64,000 nucleotides of DNA from Candidatus Pacearchaeota archaeon (GTDB taxonomy: Archaea > Nanobdellota > Nanobdellia > Pacearchaeales > UBA284): positions 424,879 through 488,878 of the forward strand of contig CP061211.1 of NCBI GenBank assembly GCA_026016245.1, in the 5' to 3' direction. Of this stretch, positions 8,873 to 59,857 are shown piece by piece. The translations under genes were made by a program, and so were the position numbers. Below the pieces are notes generated by a model, which was not told the DNA's origin, made no database searches, and worked only from the letters and a program-made list of their open reading frames with translations. How positions within the stretch are numbered: the first letter of the stretch is position 1; every line of letters begins with the position of its first letter.

Positions 8873-9541
8873 TTATTTTTTCTTTTCTTCCTTTTTTTCC
8901 TCAGGTTTTGCCTCAGTTGGAGCTGGGGCACCTGGAGCAGCAGGAGCTGCTGCAGCTTTTTCTTCCTCTTTCTGTTCTATTTCCTTAATAAGAGCTTCTT
9001 GATCCTTCTTTACTTCCTCAAAATCAGAAGCTAGCTTGTCTAATTTTTCTTTATCTGCTATTTCTTTGCCTTCAGAAATAATTTTATCATAAACTCCACT
9101 ATCTACTTGTTCTATAACTTCCTTAGGATCTTTGCTCTCAACAAGAATTCCATTACTCACACATGAGCCTAATATAGATTTAACAGCTGATTTCAAAGTA
9201 TCTGTGAACATGTCTTTCTGTTTCACCTTAGCGACCTTGATTATAACCTCTATGGCAGCATTAGCTACCTTGATTTTATCTGGTTGCTGAGAGCCTTTTT
9301 TTAATCCAAGCTCCTTCTTTAATAATTCAGTTGCAGGTGGCGTAGAGACAGAAACAGTAAAATTCTTTGTTTTTGTATCTATGTCGAGTGTTACAGGAAC
9401 CTTGATTCCTTTGAAGTCAGTGGTTGCTTTACTAACCTCTGCTATAACTTTTCCGAGATTGATTCCTAAAGGGCCTAGTTTTTGACTTAAAGCAGGACCT
9501 GGTTTCATTTCTCCACCTTCAACAAGTAATTTGATTTGCAT
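8873..9541 (-). CDS. rpl11: 50S ribosomal protein L11 with ~80-aa C-terminal extension
   Basis: N-terminal GGEMKPGPALSQKLGPLGINLGK... L11 core; tail ends in Ala/Pro-rich hinge plus K/E-rich segment. Confidence 0.8.
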   Translation of the reverse strand: MQIKLLVEGGEMKPGPALSQKLGPLGINLGKVIAEVSKATTDFKGIKVPVTLDIDTKTKNFTVSVSTPPATELLKKELGLKKGSQQPDKIKVANAAIEVIIKVAKVKQKDMFTDTLKSAVKSILGSCVSNGILVESKDPKEVIEQVDSGVYDKIISEGKEIADKEKLDKLASDFEEVKKDQEALIKEIEQKEEEKAAAAPAAPGAPAPTEAKPEEKKEEKKK

Positions 9542-9656: not shown

Positions 9657-9914
9657 TTATTTTATCTCGCAATCAGTATTAATTGCTTGCCCTGGCAGAC
9701 CTTTTTCAAATACTACTCTAAGAAGCCCCTTATTCCCGTGTGATGCAGTTATCTTACCTTTAATTATTTTTCCTGCTGGGCTTTTCCACTCAACTTCCTT
9801 ACCCAAATATTTTTCTGCATCTTTCTTGTTTTTTACTTTTTCAGTCTGGATAATAAATTGTCTTGGTTTATAAGTGTGCCTTCCACGTCTAAAACTTACA
9901 ACTGTCGCTTTCAT
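9657..9914 (-). CDS. rpl35ae: 50S ribosomal protein L35Ae
   Basis: FRRGRHTYKPRQ...GKEVEW...GKIIKGKITASHGNKGLLRVVFEKGLPGQAI. Confidence 0.8.
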   Translation of the reverse strand: MKATVVSFRRGRHTYKPRQFIIQTEKVKNKKDAEKYLGKEVEWKSPAGKIIKGKITASHGNKGLLRVVFEKGLPGQAINTDCEIK

Positions 9915-9915
9915 T

Positions 9916-11736
9916 TTAAAAAATCAACTCAAACTTTCCAAAGATCTTTCTAAGTGCATCTACCAATTCTGGAGAAATTCTTTTTTCGATTTTCTCTTTC
10001 TTTGCTGTGGCTTTTCTAAGTTCCTCTTTTGTGGCATCTGTAACCTTGCCATCTTTAAATTTCTTTATTCCATCTAGAGTTATGTCAGGGATAATGAAGG
10101 TGATATCTTTAAACAAGAATATCTCTCCTTTTTTCCTAACCTCCTTCCTTTCCTCGTTTGTTTTATAAATCAATATTATTCTATGTTTTTCTGCTTCAAG
10201 AAGTTCACGTCTTTGGCTATATTCTGTAAGCGCTAATGTCAATTGATAAGAAGCTTTTCTTACTTCAGAAAGGTCTTGTTTTGTTATTTTTCCTTTCTTA
10301 TATTTTTTCTTGGCATCTATTATCTCTTTCAAATATATGAGATTTCTTGGAGAAAGCTTTGATTTTTTAATTAACTCATTTTCAAATTTTTTGACTATGG
10401 CTGCTTCTCCACCTTTTCCTAAAATTCCTTTCATGAGCTTAAGGGTAGTATCATATATCTGTAGAATCTCTATCTCACCAGCTTTTTTCTCTATCTGCTT
10501 CATCAATTCTTTAAGTCTTTTGATATATTCTGAAGATTGTTTCAAGAGTATATCTATTTCCCTTCCACTAATTGTTTTTATCTCTTCATGCTCATATTTT
10601 TTATAGATATCAATTATTTTCTCCAGGATATTGATATATTTTGGTTCAAGAAGTTTTTCCTTCTCAACAAAAACTCTTCTCATTAATTTTACTGCTTCTT
10701 TAGGTACTGGGGGAGCAAGACCATATAACATTAAAGCTGCTTGACTTGGTGTAATGATGCCCCAATAGATATCTTCAGTAACAATATCATTCAACTTTCT
10801 CTGTACATTTTTAGCTACTCTCTCACCAAGACTCATGAACATATCTATAGCCTCAGGACTTGGTTTAATCTTGCCCATCTTAAGGAGAAGTTTCCATGGC
10901 ATGAAAGCTCCTCTGTCATAAAGAGGAACACCATCACGAATGAATGTAAAAATTACAGGATGTGCATCTTTTACTGCTTCCCAGAACTCTGTCAATATAT
11001 AAATCTGAGGATTTAACTTGTTCTCTACTCCAGCTATCTCACTTGCTTCCATAGTGTAGCTGTAAATTATAGCCCTCAATTTCTCTTTTAACTCATATCT
11101 TGACATTCTTTTAACGTCTGTATCATCTATAACCACAAAAATATCAACATCACTCGTCTTTGTTGCATCTCCCCTAACTAAAGAGCCAGCAAGAACATAA
11201 CTAACAACATACTTCTCAAACTTTTTTAGGACAAGAGTTTTATGAATAGAGGATGCTCTTAGTGCACCTAAAATACCTTTATCACATAAGGGGAAAGACA
11301 TGGCTATTGCCTCTATTAAAGCATATTTTCCATCAAAACATGTTTCCCAAACCTGCTTTATGTTCTTGATATGAAGCCACACTCTTGGTTTCATGCCTTG
11401 AATGAGTCTTATTCCCTCTACCTTTATCTTGCCTACTTCCTTGGATTTTTCTTCTGGGACTATGATAACAACATGGATTATTCTTTCATCTTTTTCTTTT
11501 TCCACCTCTTCTTCCTCTTCTATTATTTTTGCAGCTGGAGGGGGTAGAATTCCTATAGCAGAAATATAAGGGAATTTTTTTATTAGAGCCTTCTTGAAAT
11601 CCTTTAAATTGTCTCTAATTCTTTCTATCTCTTTTTTAACTTCCTTTGGGATTTGTTTCTCAATATCCCCAATTTTTTCCATTTCATACTTCTTTCCCTC
11701 TTTGTTTTTTTCAGTTTTTTTCTTCATTTTCCTCAA
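9916..11736 (-). CDS. nucleotidyltransferase-domain protein (Pol-beta superfamily), 606 aa, function unknown
   Basis: AGSLVRGDATKTSDVDIFVVIDD (GS-x9-D-x-D) near residue 185; long helical K/E-rich C-terminal region. Confidence 0.5.
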   Translation of the reverse strand: MRKMKKKTEKNKEGKKYEMEKIGDIEKQIPKEVKKEIERIRDNLKDFKKALIKKFPYISAIGILPPPAAKIIEEEEEVEKEKDERIIHVVIIVPEEKSKEVGKIKVEGIRLIQGMKPRVWLHIKNIKQVWETCFDGKYALIEAIAMSFPLCDKGILGALRASSIHKTLVLKKFEKYVVSYVLAGSLVRGDATKTSDVDIFVVIDDTDVKRMSRYELKEKLRAIIYSYTMEASEIAGVENKLNPQIYILTEFWEAVKDAHPVIFTFIRDGVPLYDRGAFMPWKLLLKMGKIKPSPEAIDMFMSLGERVAKNVQRKLNDIVTEDIYWGIITPSQAALMLYGLAPPVPKEAVKLMRRVFVEKEKLLEPKYINILEKIIDIYKKYEHEEIKTISGREIDILLKQSSEYIKRLKELMKQIEKKAGEIEILQIYDTTLKLMKGILGKGGEAAIVKKFENELIKKSKLSPRNLIYLKEIIDAKKKYKKGKITKQDLSEVRKASYQLTLALTEYSQRRELLEAEKHRIILIYKTNEERKEVRKKGEIFLFKDITFIIPDITLDGIKKFKDGKVTDATKEELRKATAKKEKIEKRISPELVDALRKIFGKFELIF

Positions 11737-11876: not shown

Positions 11877-12563
11877 ATGTTCATAAAAAAGATTTTTCAA
11901 AACAAGGTTGATGAAACTGTACATAAACAATTCATAAGATTTGGTAAAGGGGAGTTTGGAAGCAAAGCTATAATAAATATAAGAAAAACTAGTGTGGTAA
12001 AGCTAACAACAAGTTTTGAACTAGCTGGGGATATCATAATTTTCATCAGTTCTCTTGCTCCATGGTTTAGAGTTGAGGGACTCTTGTCCAACAGGGAGCA
12101 GATTCCTTGTTTTGAAGGAAAGAAGAAAAAAGGGCTTTTTGTTTATAATATAGCAAAAGAGTTGAGAAGTGAAGAACTTAGAGATCTTGTATTAAAATCA
12201 TATCCTACTTTACTTGATTGTATTTCTGGAGATGAAAGTATAAACTTGAAGATAAAAAAGAGGATTCCAAAGCCAGGCAAGAAAACTGAAGCTAAAGTTG
12301 ATGATAAGTTTTGTCAGTTAAATCTTGATGCCAAATACTGGCCACAATTACATAATGAGTTTTTATTTGATCTGCCTTTTGAGATAAAGAAAGCAAGAAT
12401 AGTGCATACTTTCATCATCAAAGATATAAAGATTCCGAAAGAGCTGGAAAAAGAGGGGGATTATGAAAAAATTAGGTTGGGGGCCAAGCGAATTGGAAAG
12501 GTGATAAGGAAGGTCGTTGTAGACGGTAAAGAGATAGTAAAAGAGAAGGATTTTATAGCATAA
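11877..12563 (+). CDS. hypothetical protein
   Basis: 228-aa ORF immediately upstream of the L3 operon. Confidence 0.35.
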   Translation: MFIKKIFQNKVDETVHKQFIRFGKGEFGSKAIINIRKTSVVKLTTSFELAGDIIIFISSLAPWFRVEGLLSNREQIPCFEGKKKKGLFVYNIAKELRSEELRDLVLKSYPTLLDCISGDESINLKIKKRIPKPGKKTEAKVDDKFCQLNLDAKYWPQLHNEFLFDLPFEIKKARIVHTFIIKDIKIPKELEKEGDYEKIRLGAKRIGKVIRKVVVDGKEIVKEKDFIA

Positions 12564-12659
12564 ACTTTATAAAGTTCGTCAGATTCATTTTTATAGGTTC
12601 ATACCTTTTTGGGGTTGTACTGGGTAGAATGACGCTAAAAATAAAATTAGCTATTAGAA

Positions 12660-13631
12660 ATGCCAAAGACACACAAGCCAAGAGCTGGGTCACTACAGTT
12701 CTGGCCGAGAAAGAGAGCTACTAGAATTTTATCTAGTGCGAACTGGAAACCTCTACAAAAAAAACATTCTGGTCTTCTTGGTTTTATATGTTATAAGGTG
12801 GGCATGATACGTGTTCTTGCTCGAGACTTAACACCTAATTCTATGACTAAAAATAAACAAATCATTATTCCTTCTACATTTGTTGGATGCCCCCCAATGA
12901 GAATTCTCGCAGTGAGATTCTACAAAGATGATATGGTTGTTTTTGATATTCTTAATGAAAATCTTGATAAGGAATTAAAAAGAAAAATAAAGCTGCCTAA
13001 AGAAAAATCAAAAATAGGGAAAAGGCTGGTTGAGGTTGAGAAGAAAATAAATGAGTTTGATGATATTAGGCTTCTTGTTTACACTCTACCTAAAGAAACT
13101 GGCCTCAAGAAGACACCAGATATAGCTGAAATAGGTCTTGGAGGAAGTAATTCAGAGAAATTAGATTTTGTTAAGAAATATATTAGCAAGGATATTAAGA
13201 TGGTGGATTTTTTAAAGTCAGGACAGGTTGTTGATGTGAGGGGCGTGACAAAAGGGCATGGGTTTACTGGACCTGTAAAACGTTTTAAGATAGGTCTAAG
13301 GCAGCACAAATCTGAGAAAGGCAGAAGACGCCCTGGAAGTGTTGGCCCCTGGACCCCTTCAAGAATCACTTTTAGAGCGCCTATGGCTGGCCAGTATGGC
13401 TTTTTTAGCCGAATTCAATATAATTCTAAACTTTTAAGTTCTGGTTCTGCCAGAGATATAGAAAAATTTTCTTTTGAATTTCCACACTATGGTAAGATAA
13501 AAACAAACTATATTATTATTAGGGGTTCTATTCATGGGCCTGCTAAAAGACAGCTTCTTCTTACACTTCCTTTAAGAGAAACAAGATCTGCTACTAAGAA
13601 AAATTTTGAAATTTTAAATTTGCTAAAATAA
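12660..13631 (+). CDS. rpl3: 50S ribosomal protein L3
   Basis: MPKTHKPRAGSLQFWPRKRA... and operon position. Confidence 0.9.
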   Translation: MPKTHKPRAGSLQFWPRKRATRILSSANWKPLQKKHSGLLGFICYKVGMIRVLARDLTPNSMTKNKQIIIPSTFVGCPPMRILAVRFYKDDMVVFDILNENLDKELKRKIKLPKEKSKIGKRLVEVEKKINEFDDIRLLVYTLPKETGLKKTPDIAEIGLGGSNSEKLDFVKKYISKDIKMVDFLKSGQVVDVRGVTKGHGFTGPVKRFKIGLRQHKSEKGRRRPGSVGPWTPSRITFRAPMAGQYGFFSRIQYNSKLLSSGSARDIEKFSFEFPHYGKIKTNYIIIRGSIHGPAKRQLLLTLPLRETRSATKKNFEILNLLK

Positions 13632-14409: not shown

Positions 14410-14657
14410 AAAAAATATTACTATATCCTTTAACAACAGAAAAATCAATTAGGATGATAGAGATTGAAAATAAAATTACTTTTGTGGTTAATAGGAAAGC
14501 AGGCAAAGTAGAGATCGCAAAGGCAATTACAGAAAATTTTAAATCTAAGGTCAAGGAGGTAAATGTTCAAATAATAAATAATAAAAAAGTGGCTTTTATC
14601 AGACTCAAACCTGAAACTCCTGCCATAGATATCGCAACAAAGCTTGGAATCATATAA
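14406..14657 (+). CDS. rpl23: 50S ribosomal protein L23
   Basis: 83 aa; position between L4 and L2. Confidence 0.85.
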   Translation: MKKILLYPLTTEKSIRMIEIENKITFVVNRKAGKVEIAKAITENFKSKVKEVNVQIINNKKVAFIRLKPETPAIDIATKLGII

Positions 14658-14658
14658 A

Positions 14659-15360
14659 ATGGGAAAAAGAATAATATCACAAGCGAGAGGAAGAGGAAGC
14701 CTTACTTATAGAACAAGAAAAAAAGCATTTAGGATCAGTGTAAGCTATCCTAGCACAGAGGGGATAGGTAGAGTTGAGAAGTTAATAAATGTTTCTTGTT
14801 ACAAGGCCCCGGTCGCTAAAATAAGAATAGATGGAAAAGTCTTTTATAATATTGCTGCTGAGGGTATATATGAAGGACAAGAAGTTAGTGTTGGAAAAAA
14901 AGCAGATATCATACCAGGAAACATAACTCAGCTAGCAAATATCCCTATAGGAACTGAGATATTCAGTATTGAAACAGTCCCTGGTGATGGACCAAAATTA
15001 GTCAGAGCCAGTGGTTTAAATGCAAGAATCACTAAAAAAAGTCTTAAAGCTGTTTATGTTTTATTGCCTTCTAAAAAAGAAAAGATATTTAGTCCTAATG
15101 CTAGAGCCACTGTAGGAGTCACAGCTGCATCTGGAAGACACGAAAAACCTCTTCTTAAAGCTGGTAAGAAGTACCACATGGCTAAGGCCATTGGAGGCAG
15201 GATTTATCCGAGAACAAGTGCTGTTAAAATGAATGTTGTTGATCATCCTTTTGGTTCTGGCAGGGGTAAAAGAATTAAGAGCAAAATAGCTAAAAGAAAT
15301 GCCCCTCCTGGAAGAAAAGTTGGGTTGCTAAGACCAAGGAGGACAGGAAAGAGGAAATAA
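14659..15360 (+). CDS. rpl2: 50S ribosomal protein L2
   Basis: L2 core; ATG at 14659 follows the L23 stop (listed ORF start 14644 is an upstream TTG). Confidence 0.9.
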
Positions 15361-15755: not shown

Positions 15756-16352
15756 ATGGAAAAAACAAAAGAAATGAAGGAAGTAAAAAAAGAAGAAAAG
15801 AAAAAGGGAAGAAATATAGTTGCAAGAGCATTAGGAAAAGATTTTCCTATTAGTACAAAACACTCAATTGCTATATGCTCTTTTATTAAAGGAAAGAACC
15901 CGCAAGAAGTTATCACTTTTTTAGAACAGGTTATTAGAAAAAAGGTTGCTGTTCCAATGAAAGGAGAAATACCTCATAGAGCAAATATGCCAAAAGGAAA
16001 ATATTCTGGAAGATATCCTGCAAAAGCATCTAGATATTTCATTAAATTACTAAAAAATTTGGTTGCGAATGCCTCTGTAAAGGGGCTCGACCCAGATTCT
16101 TTAATAATAAGTAAGGCGATAGCAAACAAAGCTTCAAGACCTTTTAGAGGAACGAGAATTGCTTATGGTAGAAAATTTTTCAAAAGAACACACATAGATC
16201 TTGAAGCAATTGAAATCAAGAAAAAGAAAAAAGAGGAAAAGAAAACAAAAGAAACAAAGGAAGAGAAAAAAGAAGAAAAGAAAGAGGAAAAAAAGCCAGA
16301 AGAAAAGACAGGAAAAGAGAAGAAAAAGGAGGAGAAGGAGAAAGAAAAATGA
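15756..16352 (+). CDS. rpl22: 50S ribosomal protein L22 with K/E-rich C-terminal tail
   Basis: L22 core; ATG at 15756 after the S19 stop; ~45-aa KKEEKK-type tail. Confidence 0.85.
   Translation: MEKTKEMKEVKKEEKKKGRNIVARALGKDFPISTKHSIAICSFIKGKNPQEVITFLEQVIRKKVAVPMKGEIPHRANMPKGKYSGRYPAKASRYFIKLLKNLVANASVKGLDPDSLIISKAIANKASRPFRGTRIAYGRKFFKRTHIDLEAIEIKKKKKEEKKTKETKEEKKEEKKEEKKPEEKTGKEKKKEEKEKEK
16223..16290. repeat. 68-nt K/E-tail coding module, copy 1 (2 mismatches vs 21703..21770)
   Basis: Near-identical nucleotide stretch encoding EEKKTKETKE(E/V)KKEEKKEEK inside the L22 and L32e tails. Confidence 0.6.
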
Positions 16353-17113
16353 TTAAAAAGAAATTTATTGAAGCAAAAAAGCAGGAATTTGAGATAAAGG
16401 AGTTTATAAAAACACAGCTTGGGAAAGGGAGGGTGAGTGATATTAAGATTGAGAGAACGCCTGTTGGAGAAAAAATAGTGATAATAACTTCAAGACCTGG
16501 GCTGGTAATCGGTCGTGGAGGAGAGATTATTCAGAAAGTAAATACATCATTAAAGAAAAGATTCAAACTTGAAAATCCTCAGATTGAAGTATCTGAAATT
16601 CAAGAGGCAATATTTGATGCTCAAACTGTTGCTGATCAAATAGCTTTATCATTAGAAAGATTTGGCCCGCTTAGTTTTAAATTAATAGCATATAGAGAAC
16701 TTGATGGGATATCAAAGGCAGGAGCTCTTGGTGCAGAAATAAGGTTAAGTGGCAGGCTTCCAAGCGAGAGATCTAGAAGTTGGAGATTCGCTTTTGGTTA
16801 TCTCAGCAAGACAGGGGCAATTGCAGATATTATAGTTAACAGAGCCCAAGCAAAGGCATTCACAAGACCAGGAGTGGTTGGTGTAAAGGTAGCAATAGTT
16901 CCTAGAGATGCTAAGATCCCTGATAAAATAAGCATCAGTAAGAAAATTATAGAAGAAGAAATAAAAGAAAAGTTAAAGAAAGCTGAGGAAGAGGCAGAAG
17001 TAAAAACTAAGAAAAAGGCAAAATCTAAAGAGAAAAAGAAAAGGAAGAAAACAACTAAGAAAAAGAAAGAAGTAAAGGAAGAGAAAAAGGGAGGGGAGGA
17101 GGAAGCAAAATAA
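16349..17113 (+). CDS. rps3: 30S ribosomal protein S3 with K/E-rich tail
   Basis: KH domain GEKIVIITSRPGLVIGRGGEIIQKV. Confidence 0.9.
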   Translation: MIKKKFIEAKKQEFEIKEFIKTQLGKGRVSDIKIERTPVGEKIVIITSRPGLVIGRGGEIIQKVNTSLKKRFKLENPQIEVSEIQEAIFDAQTVADQIALSLERFGPLSFKLIAYRELDGISKAGALGAEIRLSGRLPSERSRSWRFAFGYLSKTGAIADIIVNRAQAKAFTRPGVVGVKVAIVPRDAKIPDKISISKKIIEEEIKEKLKKAEEEAEVKTKKKAKSKEKKKRKKTTKKKKEVKEEKKGGEEEAK

Positions 17114-17114
17114 A

Positions 17115-17309
17115 ATGGCAATACTTAGAAATAGAGAAATACAAGTTTGGAATAAGAAAGAATTATTAAATAAAAGAAAAGAGCTTCAGCTTGAATTATT
17201 AAAATTAAAAATTCAAAAAGGCCAGGCAAGCGCTGGAACTAAAAAATTAAAAGAAATTAAAAAAACAATAGCAAGAATTAATACTAAGTTAAATCAACTT
17301 AAAGAATAA
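17115..17309 (+). CDS. rpl29: 50S ribosomal protein L29
   Basis: 64-aa helical protein in canonical position after S3. Confidence 0.8.
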   Translation: MAILRNREIQVWNKKELLNKRKELQLELLKLKIQKGQASAGTKKLKEIKKTIARINTKLNQLKE

Positions 17310-17310
17310 G

Positions 17311-17601
17311 ATGGATATATGCCCAAATTGTGGCTTACCAATAGAAACTTGCATTTGTAAGGAACTAGCAAAAACAAAACAAAAGATAAAGATACAGACA
17401 ACGAAAAGAAGATTCGGTAAAATTGTTACAATAGTTTCAGGGATTGAGAATGACATCAAAGGAATAGCAAAAAAACTGAAGGAAGAGTTGGCTTGTGGTG
17501 GAACAGTAAAAAACAACACCGTTGAACTTCAAGGAAATCATATAAACAAAGTGAAACAGAAATTGATAGAGATTGGATTCAATAAAGATAATATAGAATA
17601 A
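17311..17601 (+). CDS. translation initiation factor SUI1 (aSUI1/eIF1 family) with N-terminal zinc ribbon
   Basis: MDICPNCGLPIETCICKE... then SUI1-like fold; canonical position between L29 and Rpp29. Confidence 0.8.
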   Translation: MDICPNCGLPIETCICKELAKTKQKIKIQTTKRRFGKIVTIVSGIENDIKGIAKKLKEELACGGTVKNNTVELQGNHINKVKQKLIEIGFNKDNIE

Positions 17602-20726: not shown

Positions 20727-21284
20727 ATGAAAAAGAAAATAACAAAAATAATCAAGATACCAGAAAAAACAGAAATAAAACTAGAACTTCCGAAAATAGT
20801 TGTTAGTGGCCCTCTTGGAAGTATTGAGAAAAAATTCAAATTTAAAAGAATACAGATAAAAAAGGAAAATAATGAGATGATAATTGAACATGAAAAAGCC
20901 ACAAAAAAAGATAAAAAAATAATAAATACGATGGCAAGTCTTGTTGAAAGTATGATTAGGGGGGTTAATGAGGGTTATGAGTATAAACTCCAAATATGCT
21001 CAACACATTTTCCTATAAGTGTCAAAATAGACAAGGAAAAAAATCTCTTGGTTATAAAGAATTTTCTTGGTGAGAATAAAGATAGGATAGTGAGATTACT
21101 CCCCGAAGTGGATATAAAGATACAGGGAGATATCATATCTATAAATTCAGTAAATAAAGAACTAGCTGGACAGCAGGCAGCAGATATTGAAGTTGTTTCA
21201 AGAATCAAAAGACGTGATAGGAGAGTTTTCCAAGATGGAATATGGATAATTAAAAAAGAAAAAGGAAGACCAAAATCAAAATGA
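20727..21284 (+). CDS. rpl6: 50S ribosomal protein L6
   Basis: Sequence and operon position. Confidence 0.9.
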   Translation: MKKKITKIIKIPEKTEIKLELPKIVVSGPLGSIEKKFKFKRIQIKKENNEMIIEHEKATKKDKKIINTMASLVESMIRGVNEGYEYKLQICSTHFPISVKIDKEKNLLVIKNFLGENKDRIVRLLPEVDIKIQGDIISINSVNKELAGQQAADIEVVSRIKRRDRRVFQDGIWIIKKEKGRPKSK

Positions 21285-21889
21285 TAAAGAAAAAGCCCAG
21301 ATTTTTGAGAAAAGACACTTTCAAGAAATCAAGATTAGGGAAAAGAAAGAAAAAAAAACAGATATGGAGAAGGCCTATAGGTAGGCATAGCAAAATAAGG
21401 GAAAAAAGAAGGGGTTATGGGAAACAGCCATCAATAGGTTATAGTTCCCCACGTAAAATCAGAGGCTCTATGAGGGGATTGAAACCTGTATTAATTTATT
21501 CTCCCAAAGATATTAATGAAATTAAAAAAAATGAAATTGTTATTGTGGGCAAGGTTGGTAAAAAAAGAAAAATAGATATCGCTAAGAAAGCTCTTGAGAA
21601 AAAGATTATTCTTTCAAATCTAAATGCTCAAAAATTCATAAGGAAAATTGAGGCAGAAAAGAAAAAGAAAGAAGAATTAAGGAAGAAAAGAAAAGTGGAA
21701 GAAAAGAAAAAAGAGGAAAAGAAAACAAAAGAAACAAAGGAAGTGAAAAAAGAAGAAAAGAAGGAGGAAAAGGAAAAAGGAAAAATCCTGCGTAAGGAAA
21801 CAAAAAAAGAAAAGCCAGAAGTAAAAATTAAGCCAAAAGGAGGGCCTAAAGAAAAAAAAGAAATGTTTAGAAAGGCGCTTGAAAAATGA
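21281..21889 (+). CDS. rpl32e: 50S ribosomal protein L32e with K/E-rich tail
   Basis: L32e core plus long KKEEKK tail. Confidence 0.85.
   Translation: MIKKKPRFLRKDTFKKSRLGKRKKKKQIWRRPIGRHSKIREKRRGYGKQPSIGYSSPRKIRGSMRGLKPVLIYSPKDINEIKKNEIVIVGKVGKKRKIDIAKKALEKKIILSNLNAQKFIRKIEAEKKKKEELRKKRKVEEKKKEEKKTKETKEVKKEEKKEEKEKGKILRKETKKEKPEVKIKPKGGPKEKKEMFRKALEK
21703..21770. repeat. 68-nt K/E-tail coding module, copy 2
   Basis: See 16223..16290. Confidence 0.6.
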
Positions 21890-43485: not shown

Positions 43486-44496
43486 TTAACTTATATTTTT
43501 CTTTTTGCACCACCATTTAAGTATCGAAGCATTTCCAAGCCATGTTGAGATCAGGTCAATAAAAAGCCCTGCTGACAAGATGAAGAAAATTTGTTTAAGT
43601 ACAGAGGATTGGGCTACAAAAAATCCTATAAGAACAGCAATTAAAGAGGTTATTGTCATTGTCAAGCCTGTACGAGCTGCTGATTTTATTCTATTGTTTA
43701 GCTCTCCCTCTCCTCTTCTCTTGATAAGTTTTGTTGTTAACATTACATCTGTATCAACACTATAACCAACAAGCATTAAGAAAGCTGCTATGCCTGCTGT
43801 TGATATATGAAATCCAAATAAATTAGCTATGGTTAAAGCTCCTACAATATCCATGACTGCAGCAAGTATTACAGCTAATGAAGGAACAATTTTTCTAAAA
43901 ATAATGAAAACAACTAGGCCCATGATTACAAATGCTATAGCCAAAGCAATAATCATCTGTTTGTAGAAACTCTCACTTAAACTAGCTCCACTTATCTCTA
44001 GACTTGAATTTGAACTATCTAATTGATAACCTAGAAATTCTTCAAGAGAGCTGGTTGCAGTTTCAGAATCAGATTTTGTCTCAACTACAATACCTATCTG
44101 CTTTCTTGTTGTTATATCCTCTAATTTCCTTACATTAATATCTTCTAGCTTGCTTGCCAAAGTATTTTCCATATTCTGGAGATCAATCTCTTCTTCAGTA
44201 TAGATTGTAATGACTGTTCCTCCTGTCAAAGTCACATCTTTAAACATAATATCACCATGTTGGGCATAAAAAAAGCCAACATAAGCAAAACAAGCAATAA
44301 GAATGATAATAGATATTAGAAGAAGTTTTTTATAATTCTTGTCATACCATTCAGAACCACTAAGCTTTGGTTTTTTAGGTTTTTCTTCTTTCTCTATTTT
44401 CTTTTCTAGCTCTTGTTTTGGTTTTTCTTCCTTTTTCTCTTCTTTTATCTCTGGTTTCCCTTCCCTTCTCTCCTCTGGTTTTTCTTCCTCGTTCAT
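43486..44496 (-). CDS. secF: protein-export membrane protein SecF
   Basis: C-terminal 6-TM SecD/SecF domain, directly upstream of secD. Confidence 0.75.
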   Translation of the reverse strand: MNEEEKPEERREGKPEIKEEKKEEKPKQELEKKIEKEEKPKKPKLSGSEWYDKNYKKLLLISIIILIACFAYVGFFYAQHGDIMFKDVTLTGGTVITIYTEEEIDLQNMENTLASKLEDINVRKLEDITTRKQIGIVVETKSDSETATSSLEEFLGYQLDSSNSSLEISGASLSESFYKQMIIALAIAFVIMGLVVFIIFRKIVPSLAVILAAVMDIVGALTIANLFGFHISTAGIAAFLMLVGYSVDTDVMLTTKLIKRRGEGELNNRIKSAARTGLTMTITSLIAVLIGFFVAQSSVLKQIFFILSAGLFIDLISTWLGNASILKWWCKKKNIS

Positions 44497-44570: not shown

Positions 44571-44687
44571 GCGCCAGTAGTCTAATGGTAGGACATTAGC
44601 CTTCCAAATAAGGGCAAGCCCTTATCAACCCAAATGCTTACCTAATAAAGAAAGCTAATGATCTGGGTTCGAGTCCCGGCTGGCGCA
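44571..44687 (+). tRNA. intron-containing tRNA, most likely tRNA-Gly (anticodon UCC); ~45-nt intron at 37/38
   Basis: Acceptor GCGCCAG/CUGGCGC; anticodon stem UUAGC (44596-44600) pairs with GCUAA (44654-44658); loop CUUCCA+A; intron ~44608-44652 with internal hairpin. Confidence 0.7.
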
Positions 44688-46788: not shown

Positions 46789-46789
46789 A

Positions 46790-46873
46790 TGCGGGAGACA
46801 GGATTCGAACCTGCGTAGGCACTAAGCCAATGGATCTTGAGTCCATCCCGTTTGACCACTCCGGCACTCCCGC
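46790..46873 (-). tRNA. tRNA-Leu (anticodon CAA)
   Basis: Anticodon stem AUGGA/UCCAU, loop CUCAAGA; long variable arm. Confidence 0.85.
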
Positions 46874-49185: not shown

Positions 49186-49191
49186 TTTCTA

Positions 49192-49275
49192 TGCGGAAGA
49201 CAGGATTCGAACCTGCGTAGGCACTAAGCCACATGGACCTTAGCCATGCCCGTTTGACCACTCCGGCACTCCCGC
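49192..49275 (-). tRNA. tRNA-Leu with apparent anticodon AAG (A34, unusual for archaea)
   Basis: Identical to the tRNA-Leu(CAA) at 46790..46873 except one acceptor base and the anticodon stem-loop: stem CAUGG/CCAUG, loop CUAAGGU. Confidence 0.7.
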
Positions 49276-50085: not shown

Positions 50086-50480
50086 TATACTCTCCTTCCC
50101 CTTTTACCGCCTTTTGGCTTAGGACCTCCCCTTGGCATCGGTGTTACATCTGTAATATTCAGGATTTTTAAACCTTGTCTTGCCAGACTTTTGATAGCAG
50201 CATTTGCTCCAGGCCCAGGAGATGGAGATAACTTGCCTCCTTTTCCTGAAACTCTCACATATATAGCCCTAATCCCCTGATCTTTTGCTTTTTCAGCTGC
50301 TCTTTTTGCAGTAAACATAGCAACAGTGGGATTAGCCTTTAGTCTATCGTGTTTTGTAACCTCGCCACCTGAAATTAAAGCTATGGTGCTCCCTGCCATG
50401 TCTGTAATATGAACTATAGTATTATTATAAGTAGCTCTAATATAAGCTATCCCAGTCCCTTCTAATTTCTTTTCTGCCAT
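50085..50480 (-). CDS. rps11: 30S ribosomal protein S11
   Basis: GIAYIRATYNNTIVHITDMAGSTIALISGG. Confidence 0.9.
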   Translation of the reverse strand: MAEKKLEGTGIAYIRATYNNTIVHITDMAGSTIALISGGEVTKHDRLKANPTVAMFTAKRAAEKAKDQGIRAIYVRVSGKGGKLSPSPGPGANAAIKSLARQGLKILNITDVTPMPRGGPKPKGGKRGRRV

Positions 50481-50481
50481 T

Positions 50482-51030
50482 TTATTTTACTTCCTCCTTC
50501 TTTTCCTTTTTCTCTTCTTTTTCTTCCTTTACTTCTTCTTTAGGTTTTTCTTCTACTGGTCTCTCTTTTTTGATTTTTTTGACAGCAGAGATTTTATTTT
50601 CCTCTTCTGTTCTTACAATATATCCAGGGACATCCATTATTTTATCCCCTACTTTTATTTTTCTATGAACAATCAGCTGTCTTGCCCCTTTAAGTGTTTT
50701 TGCGATTCCTTTTTTGAAAACAACTGTCTGTAATCTTCTTTCAAATAATCTTTCCTTTGTCAGGGCAAGAATATCATCAATAGTTGCATCTTTATTTACC
50801 AAGCCCAGCCTTATGAGACGATTAATAAAAGTCTCTTTTTGCTCAGGTTGTAGAATTAATTTTTTGGCTTGAGAACGAATTCTATCTATATAGTTCTCTG
50901 AACGCCATATCTCTTTTTTGTTCTTTAAACCATATTTCCTGATAAAAGCTTTTTCTTCCTGTATTCGTGATTTGTCAAATGGTGTTTTTGGTCTTGAATA
51001 TTTTTTGTGCTGTCTTTTTGGATCTCCCAT
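50482..51030 (-). CDS. rps4: 30S ribosomal protein S4
   Basis: MGDPKRQHKKYSRPKTPFDK... Confidence 0.9.
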   Translation of the reverse strand: MGDPKRQHKKYSRPKTPFDKSRIQEEKAFIRKYGLKNKKEIWRSENYIDRIRSQAKKLILQPEQKETFINRLIRLGLVNKDATIDDILALTKERLFERRLQTVVFKKGIAKTLKGARQLIVHRKIKVGDKIMDVPGYIVRTEEENKISAVKKIKKERPVEEKPKEEVKEEKEEKKEKKEEVK

Positions 51031-59563: not shown

Positions 59564-59857
59564 ATGCCATATAGAGATTCTAGAAGAGGCACTGGAAGAG
59601 GAAGGAGCGGCCCCCGTAAATTTGGTGGTCAGAGAAGGTTTGGCGGTCCACGTAGATTTGGGCCACGAGAGATGCACAAAATAACATGTGCTGAATGCGG
59701 AAAAGAAGCAGAAGTTCCTTTCAAACCTTCAGGAGACAGGCCAGTTTATTGCAAAGAGTGTTTTATGAAAAGGAAAGGAATAAAACCTAGAGAAGAAAAA
59801 GAAGAAAAGGAAAAAACTGAAAAGCCAGAAGAAGTCGAAGAAGCCAAAGAAGAATAA
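59564..59857 (+). CDS. zinc-ribbon protein (CxxC-x17-CxxC) with RGG-rich N-terminus
   Basis: ITCAECGKEAEVPFKPSGDRPVYCKECF; N-terminal RRGTGRGRSGPRKFGGQRRFGGPRRFG. Confidence 0.5.
   Translation: MPYRDSRRGTGRGRSGPRKFGGQRRFGGPRRFGPREMHKITCAECGKEAEVPFKPSGDRPVYCKECFMKRKGIKPREEKEEKEKTEKPEEVEEAKEE

Follow-up and report, generated by a model that had tools for sequence, protein, structure and literature searches.

The ribosomal protein genes uL22 and eL32 of a Candidatus Pacearchaeota archaeon were found to share a 70-nt segment, at 97.1% identity, within their lysine/glutamate-rich (K/E-rich) extensions. Both genes lie in a 64-kb stretch of DNA, which was analysed as a whole and is referred to here as the window. 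On sequence evidence the repeat is a genuine recent DNA-level copy between two non-homologous ribosomal protein genes, and other segments were found to be shared between ribosomal protein genes in related genomes. The best reading of these results, and one that is considered probable, is recurrent short-tract, non-reciprocal (gene conversion-like) copying among the extension tracts of ribosomal proteins, tolerated by tails that are composition-driven.

The repeat shared by uL22 and eL32

An earlier reading of the sequence alone (the sequence-only reading) had noted that positions 16223-16290 and 21703-21770 differ at only 2 of 68 nt and encode near-identical peptides. A recount agrees on the 68 nt and the two mismatches, and the longest match with at most two mismatches extends to 70 nt (16222-16291 and 21702-21771). 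The first mismatch (16264 A / 21744 T) gives GAG, Glu170, in uL22 and GTG, Val155, in eL32, and the second (16283 A / 21763 G) gives the synonymous lysine codons AAA and AAG. Copy A is located in the C-terminal tail of uL22 (aa ~157-179, KKKEEKKTKETKEEKKEEKKEE) and copy B in the K/E linker of eL32 (aa ~142-164, KKKEEKKTKETKEVKKEEKKEE). Both are on the + strand, in frame and in equal codon phase, encoding the peptide KKKEEKKTKETKE[E/V]KKEEKKEE, and their genes are in direct orientation, 5.5 kb apart. Beyond the 70-nt match both flanks fall to the background similarity of any two purine-rich tracts.

The make-up of the two tails, both of which are at least 90% purine with degenerate periodicities of 12-25 nt, together with the many near matches of 20-27 nt among the tails, could suggest that the similarity arose by chance, or that low-complexity K/E-coding tracts assembled from common short units slipped in parallel. 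The window has a G+C content of 31.5% and contains 44 purine tracts (defined as at least 30 nt with at least 90% purine on the coding strand). With up to two mismatches allowed, the runner-up match between these tracts was 27 nt, compared with 70 nt for uL22/eL32. Markov simulations of order 1, 3 and 5 trained on the same tracts gave a maximum of 25+-2 nt, the largest being 34 nt (300 runs each), which places the background maxima, observed and simulated, at 25-34 nt. Tandem Repeats Finder (TRF) identified only degenerate periodicity in the tails, with arrays no better than 65-80% matches, and two ACA codons and a GAGG, which are not periodic, occupy the same positions in both copies of the shared segment. 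A chance or low-complexity origin was rejected on the basis of the tract background, the Markov simulations and TRF, and its probability is regarded as negligible.

Both copies specify nearly one 22-residue peptide, as would be expected from peptide-level convergence or from an ancient shared motif under purifying selection on its amino acids. However, the same synonymous codon is used in 20 of the 21 amino-acid-identical codons, compared with 12.0 expected from the K/E/T codon usage of the cluster (P=1.2e-4), and the repeat is therefore attributed to common DNA descent rather than to peptide convergence. Furthermore, the peptide is absent from the orthologous tails of the nearest relatives, and the 31-nt core of the module had 0 exact matches in the metagenome_contigs and viral_contigs collections. 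Convergence was rejected by the codon test and is seen as very remote.

The source genome is a metagenome-assembled genome (MAG) and low-complexity repeats are error-prone, which would allow for an artefact: reads mis-threaded by a de Bruijn graph assembler in the low-complexity purine tracts could have placed one sequence at two sites. Against this, the two copies disagree at 2 of the 70 positions, both keep the reading frame, lie between unique flanks and leave the ATGA overlap with the following gene intact, and a repeat of 70 nt is shorter than the typical read length. More diverged uL22/eL32 repeats (82-90%) are present in two other assemblies from separate projects, and further cases are found across MEGAHIT, SPAdes and other assemblies; as a general explanation, an artefact would have to account for in-frame repeats in every case, for diverged copies among them and for their occurrence across independent projects and different assemblers. 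Assembly collapse or artefact is unlikely, and the probability given to it is small indeed. A mobile-element reading was also rejected, as the module lacks inverted repeats because it is purine-only, and the window contains just three copies, all in frame and in two genes of one operon.

The third of these copies is among those returned by a self-comparison of the kind that the sequence-only reading had proposed, run on the 64-kb window (BLAST, word size 9, no dust). This partial copy C is situated in the N-terminal extension of uL22 (15762-15814, + strand, KTKEMKEVKKEEKKKGR). It matches copy B at 92.7% over 41 nt (15762-15802 vs 21722-21762) and copy A at 86.8% over 53 nt (15762-15814 vs 16242-16294), in the same codon phase in each case. 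Its raw score is 32; when loci of different genomes are paired, just 0.19% of the pairs give a hit of at least 30 between different genes, and copy C is therefore probably an older copy of the module. A valine codon is common to copy C (GTA) and to copy B of eL32 (GTG), which by parsimony suggests that GAG in the C-terminal tail of uL22 is a later change. Both of the 27-nt runner-up matches likewise involve the N-terminal extension of uL22 (MEKTKEMKEVKKEEKKKG).

The self-BLAST returned only these three module copies, tRNA-Leu paralogues and one borderline hit between uS3 and uS4. The latter joins the C-terminal tails of uS3 (17069-17120, + strand) and uS4 (50475-50526, - strand) over 52 nt at 87% in the coding sense, with a raw score of 31, and may represent another old exchange or chance.

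Stretches of 20 aa with at least 80% K+E were identified in uL22, uS3, eL32, uS4 (50482-51030, - strand), the N-terminus of SecD/F (43486-44496, - strand) and a treble-clef zinc-finger protein (59564-59857), with less dense K/E stretches in uS5 (N-terminus) and uL11 (C-terminus). The module DNA was not found by the window self-BLAST on the K/E tails of uS3, uS5, uL11, uS4, SecD/F or the zinc-finger protein. K/E-rich extensions on uS3, uS5, uL11 and a protein named 'Csp' (probably the zinc-finger protein) had been listed in the sequence-only reading as signs of a spreading tail module. The list stands as far as composition is concerned; at the DNA level the module is confined, within the window, to uL22 (twice) and eL32. 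Spreading of this module to the other tails is not supported, although the idea is borne out in a wider sense, as relatives copy other modules among the extensions of uL22, eL32, uL5, uS3, uS17, uL24, eS4 and uL3.

Tail sharing in related genomes

Orthologues of uL22 and eL32 from MAGs of Pacearchaeota, Woesearchaeota and Nanoarchaeota nearly all carry K/E extensions, the sequence and length of which vary freely. The uL22 orthologues are 70-75% identical in the core and have K/E tails of different sequence. Loci with their flanks were obtained for the two closest sequenced relatives, GCA_964396475.1 (L002/L007) and GCA_030641225.1 (L001/L006). In the first of these, the C-terminal tail of uL22 matches the eL32 tail over 92 nt at 90% (EIKPKSE[SP]KEEK...KKGEEEK), and in the second the two tails give a 137-nt gapped alignment at 82% (KEKEMK[MI]EKEKEKE..KPKVK[ND]KEK). 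The segment shared by uL22 and eL32 differs among the window, L002 and L001 genomes. Between these genomes the core DNA is 72-79% identical, but hits between tails, orthologous or otherwise, span no more than 27-37 nt.

A set of 11 genomes in which both the uL22 and the eL32 tail are at least 20 aa long was used for tail comparison. Within-genome scores between the two tails were 64 for the window, 60 for L007, 52 for L006 and 26 for L066, compared with a between-genome maximum of 25 (110 pairs). Within-genome likeness combined with unalignable orthologous tails is the mark of concerted evolution, the events having taken place after the species splits. They are of differing ages, with identities of 97%, 90% and 82%. 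Comparison with orthologues in relatives had been proposed alongside the view that recent duplication or gene conversion produced the repeat; each of the three genomes proved to have its own uL22/eL32 segment, and that view is backed by the non-random length, the shared synonymous codons and the contrast between unalignable orthologous tails and 82-97% identity within genomes.

For a lineage-wide survey, 80 species-representative loci retrieved with a 9-sequence alignment were added to the window (81 in total), their ribosomal protein genes were labelled by phmmer with the window proteins, and each locus was compared with itself. A hit was counted if it joined two different ribosomal protein genes that share a strand and are not adjacent, and neighbour labels were excluded from the null (e.g., the fused or mislabelled uS17/uL14 of L042). 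At a score of at least 35, nine gene pairs were found within 7 of the 81 loci, compared with two in 6,480 ordered locus pairs between genomes (a 360-fold enrichment), and at a score of at least 50 there were five within-locus hits and none between loci. The commonest pair was uL22-eL32 (5 loci), involving the C-terminal tail of uL22 in the window, L006, L007 and L066 and its N-terminal extension in L018. Among the between-genome chance hits, eL32-uS3 and uL22-uS5 predominate.

The other cases involve a range of extensions. In L016, the N-terminal extensions of uL22 (7901-7979) and uL5 (12255-12333) share 79 nt at 95% (KMAEQNKTENKKETKQEEQKNVVETK / KMTNQNKTENKEETKQEEQKNVVETK), and the shared tract includes the start codon, so that N-terminal modules are evidently copied along with the start. 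In L018, the N-terminal extensions of uL22 and uL5 and the C-terminal extension of eL32 share a module that is not of low complexity (APKGVHQGGASTSSRPR...STGGKK), and a loop of uL3 and the C-terminal extension of uS17 share PKGVPSKEGK. Further pairs were uL22/uS3 (L006), the uL22 N-terminal extension with a uS17-Rpp29 region (L008) or with eS4 (L066), and uL24/uL5 (L052). Repeating the survey on 21 non-redundant metagenome loci added one case, between the C-terminal extension of uL24 and the eL32 tail of L155 (51 nt at 92%). As modules that are not of low complexity are also copied (L016, L018, L155), the process is not an artefact of composition.

The motif (A/T)PKGVPSKEGKK or APKGVHQGGASTSS..STGGKK was observed in L018 at 6664-6696, 9870-9955, 12015-12047, 14457-14498 and 17449-17535, and also in L050, L066, L069 and L076. 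In all five genomes this PKGV-type module is present in uL22, and in uL3, uS17, uL5 and eL32 only in some (the sisters L018/L050 vs L069, L066 and L076), a distribution which indicates gene-to-gene spread. The copies inside L018 are 86-98% identical at the DNA level. The conserved end of the window eL32 (KPKGGPKEKKEMFRKALEK, 21809-21886) resembles this module.

Repeats of 50-110 nt at 80-100% were also seen in unlabelled stretches of several loci, namely L044 (9624-9678/11189-11243/12103-12180), L029 (9767-9830/10365-10428), L096 (10421-10531/15954-16048/16714-16824), L164 (several), L059, L076, L077 and L123. Those of L096, L077 and L164 are positioned directly upstream of start codons within the ribosomal protein cluster and may be repeated leader or promoter-like elements, a phenomenon distinct from the coding tail modules. 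Locus L096 additionally has three non-ribosomal ORFs (open reading frames) between uS17 and uL24 (12121-13365) and a 202-nt repeat at 84% (12187-12388 / 14908-15109).

Proposed copying process, alternatives and known parallels

The tails consist of runs of AAR and GAR codons, and such purine-only DNA contains no stop codon in any frame of the coding strand. No purine tracts in the window are longer than those of uL22 and eL32 (153 and 149 nt), which contain many exact microhomologies of 10-20 nt. We infer that ectopic gene conversion, or template switching during repair or replication, would have overwritten or inserted ~70 nt of one tail with the sequence of the other. A crossover between the copies would cost the cell ~5.5 kb of essential genes, and only non-crossover products would survive. 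Indels and copy-paste events would escape premature stops and go unpunished because the purine-only tails are free of stops in every frame. The copied segments would be tolerated because the K/E part looks like a spacer requiring composition and length rather than sequence, the extensions acting through their composition, charge and length. Recurrence of such events in a lineage would leave the ribosomal protein tails within one genome more alike than orthologues elsewhere.

Several points weigh against this reading. The two genes are non-homologous and their flanks share only compositional similarity (~60-68%), whereas classical gene conversion needs prior homology; the data fit duplicative insertion or a microhomology-mediated template switch equally well. 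The preference for uL22-eL32 could reflect selection rather than tract length. Sharing was detected in only ~9% of loci, and the close relatives L008 and L010 have no uL22/eL32 sharing. No closer relative was found in an index of 5.8 billion proteins, where the best identities among the matches listed were 74% for uL22 and 62-65% for eL32; the uL22 of the window itself was not among them, probably owing to a differing start call or to the number of matches listed. At 62-75% protein identity, the nearest relatives are too distant to date the event or to tell donor from recipient. The comparison was made on assembled sequence only, covering 64 kb of the 710-kb contig. Finally, the function that we infer for the tails is set against low AlphaFold2 (AF2) confidence for the uL22 tail and a charge pattern unlike that of canonical single alpha-helices (SAHs).

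In a variant of the same scheme, copying would take place at the DNA level but identical tails would be kept by selection, for repeated surface display, a common partner or tail-tail interaction. This would agree with uL22-eL32 being the commonest pair (5 loci), unlike the between-genome chance hits, with the presence of (A/T)PKGVPSKEGKK in the extensions of up to five ribosomal proteins and its conservation in several genomes, and with the conserved motif in which eL32 tails end. It has also been reported that KKE/D domains, which are comparable K/E(D) tracts, interact homo- and heterotypically (PMC11528048). However, the purine tracts of these two genes are the longest in the window, so that a process driven by homology or length predicts the same pair, and the module differs per genome with orthologous tails unconserved, which argues against a specific recognised K/E peptide. 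Selected homogenisation is considered rather unlikely. A related proposal, which is put forward tentatively and as a doubtful one, is that the extensions of ribosomal proteins in Pacearchaeota and related DPANN archaea form a pool of exchangeable modules (K/E pieces and (A/T)PKGVPSKEGKK), copied again and again between non-homologous genes. One peptide shown on several ribosomal proteins would give the ribosome a multivalent surface tag, recognised by a common partner or serving to bind other ribosomes or RNA, and would be retained for that reason. If true, the proposal would describe how a prokaryote can arrive at eukaryote-like ribosomal protein tails, with unrelated proteins evolving in concert.

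The probable short-tract copying has features in common with gene conversion, which is an established non-reciprocal homogenising force in prokaryotes (PMC8223754). As in concerted evolution, within-genome copies exceed orthologues in similarity (64/60/52 vs a maximum of 25), the tract is sharply bounded (97% over 70 nt with diverged flanks) and synonymous sites are homogenised (20/21 vs 12.0). Classical cases, however, concern true paralogues such as rRNA operons, tuf and multigene families, whereas here non-homologous essential genes share low-complexity tracts only and the copied segment differs in each genome.

The closest conceptual parallel is provided by the ubiquitin fusions of eS31/RPS27a and eL40, in which one module on two ribosomal protein genes evolves in concert (PMC10457151). 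Ubiquitin is folded, cleaved, extremely conserved and eukaryotic, whereas the module described here is a 23-codon low-complexity part of a retained tail, archaeal and unconserved between species.

The closest functional parallel is found in the KKE/D domains of small nucleolar ribonucleoprotein (snoRNP) proteins (Nop56, Nop58 and Cbf5; also Rpa34 and Pxr1), where several members of one RNA-protein machinery carry a long terminal K/E(D) polyampholyte tract whose action is electrostatic and composition-driven (PMC11528048). In a similar manner, uL22, eL32, uS3, uS5, uS4 and uL11 carry K-rich polyampholyte terminal tracts. The context differs, being that of eukaryotic nucleolar snoRNPs and RNA polymerase I in the one case and of archaeal ribosomal proteins in the other; intrinsically disordered regions of the KKE/D type are reported to be absent from archaeal snoRNPs, and DNA-level sharing between genes is not reported in that work (PMC11528048). 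In Parcubacteria, uS19 has an Ala/Lys-rich C-terminal region, a clade-specific charged tail in ultra-small organisms (PMC9297842); that work concerns tail presence or absence only, and nucleotide-level sharing between ribosomal protein genes is not described in it.

Ribosomal protein genes are usually treated as slow, vertically inherited markers, and their extensions as lineage-specific add-ons of unknown origin. The window reveals one nucleotide-level route by which extensions are remodelled, i.e., short-tract copying within one operon, recurrent across a clade of ultra-small archaea. In full-text literature searches, nothing was found on the sharing of tails by DPANN ribosomal protein genes; this is a known process (gene conversion/concerted evolution) in a new setting, and the recurrent clade pattern is previously undescribed in the searched literature. 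In concatenated DPANN ribosomal protein markers, low-complexity tails are non-orthologous characters and should be trimmed. The events at 97%, 90% and 82% form a natural age series for short-tract conversion in uncultivated archaea, and the recurring uL22-eL32 pair together with the PKGVPSKEGKK-type peptide provides testable hypotheses on tails at the DPANN ribosome surface.

Host genes, tail properties and neighbouring features

The uL22 gene (15756-16352, + strand) encodes 198 aa with a match to Pfam PF00237 at residues 26-141 (E=3e-14, 53.4 bits, cut-off 28). The protein has a K/E-rich N-terminal extension (aa 1-19), the L22 core and a K/E-rich C-terminal tail (aa 153-198), which as a whole comprises 46 aa (16212-16349, + strand) and is 87% charged with a net charge of +6. 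The TGA stop of uL22 overlaps the ATG of uS3 (ATGA). An alternative frame of the uL22 tail is also open, as ORF 16201-16356, which ends in ...KKND inside the uS3 start region (ATGATTAAA), and several uL22 orthologues (P0005, P0006 and P0010) end in ...KND, i.e., in the other frame relative to the conserved uS3 start. Purine-only tails are tolerant of frameshifts.

The eL32 gene (21281-21889, + strand) encodes 202 aa with a match to Pfam PF01655 at residues 12-112 (E=2e-17, 64.1 bits, cut-off 25), and its TGA stop overlaps the ATG of eL19. Its product is 100% identical to the protein IB618_02635 of an NCBI MAG of Candidatus Pacearchaeota archaeon (710,724-bp contig). A core (aa 1-~115) is followed by a long K/E-rich linker (aa 116-176) and a conserved terminal motif (aa 177-202, ...KPKGGPKEKKEMFRKALEK). 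The linker, which connects core and motif, comprises 61 aa (21626-21808, + strand) and is 75% charged with a net charge of +14. In the alignment of eL32 orthologues the K/E stretch is variable and the extreme C-terminus (..ILRKE...KEKKEMFRKALEK) is kept in a subset; the terminal motif, ..[IM]L[HR]K[ED]..KEKKEM[FR]R..ALEK, is encoded at 21809-21886 in the window and is again seen in a subset of orthologues only. This pattern suggests that the motif is a tethered functional peptide, to which the K/E stretch looks like a spacer.

The module is 86-91% charged and 0-5% hydrophobic. For eL32, AF2 predicts one long helix (residues 116-176) which runs on from the core and through the module, with a predicted local distance difference test (pLDDT) score of 83-95 to about residue 160, followed by a low-confidence loop and a short terminal helix. 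For uL22, helices were predicted at residues 2-16 and 157-197 (pLDDT ~50). The tails are net-positive polyampholytes of predicted helical structure that would lie on the ribosome surface. They resemble SAH (ER/K) domains in their charged fraction (0.86-0.91), lack of a hydrophobic seam and long uninterrupted AF2 helices. SAH domains serve as spacers (PMC5812594), a role which would fit the eL32 linker and its terminal motif. However, the ratio of opposite to like charges at i+3/i+4, a crude count rather than the output of published SAH predictors, is 0.67-0.80 for the module and 0.86-1.15 for whole tails, compared with 0.37 for E2K2 and 5.8 for E4K4; the module is therefore nearer to E2K2 than to E4K4 and the predominance of opposite charges seen in SAHs is lacking.

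The order of the ribosomal protein cluster is uL3-uL4-uL23-uL2-uS19-uL22-uS3-...-uL6-eL32-eL19-uL18-uS5-uL30-uL15-SecY, which is the standard archaeal one and is syntenic with that of the relatives. Elsewhere in the window, uL11 (8873-9541, - strand) has a C-terminal extension of ~85 aa, with an Ala/Pro-rich hinge followed by a K/E tail (…EEEKAAAAPAAPGAPAPTEAKPEEKKEEKKK), and the uL11 of relatives is likewise long (225-237 aa). The hinge and tail are reminiscent of archaeal P-stalk proteins.

A 117-nt element at 44571-44687 (+ strand) matches a tRNA family of Rfam (59 bits) with no ARAGORN call, and is probably an intron-containing archaeal tRNA. The two tRNA-Leu genes (46789-46873 and 49191-49275, - strand) have the anticodons CAA and AAG, respectively, and at ~86-91% identity are ordinary isoacceptor paralogues; a tRNA-Arg gene adjoins the first of them.

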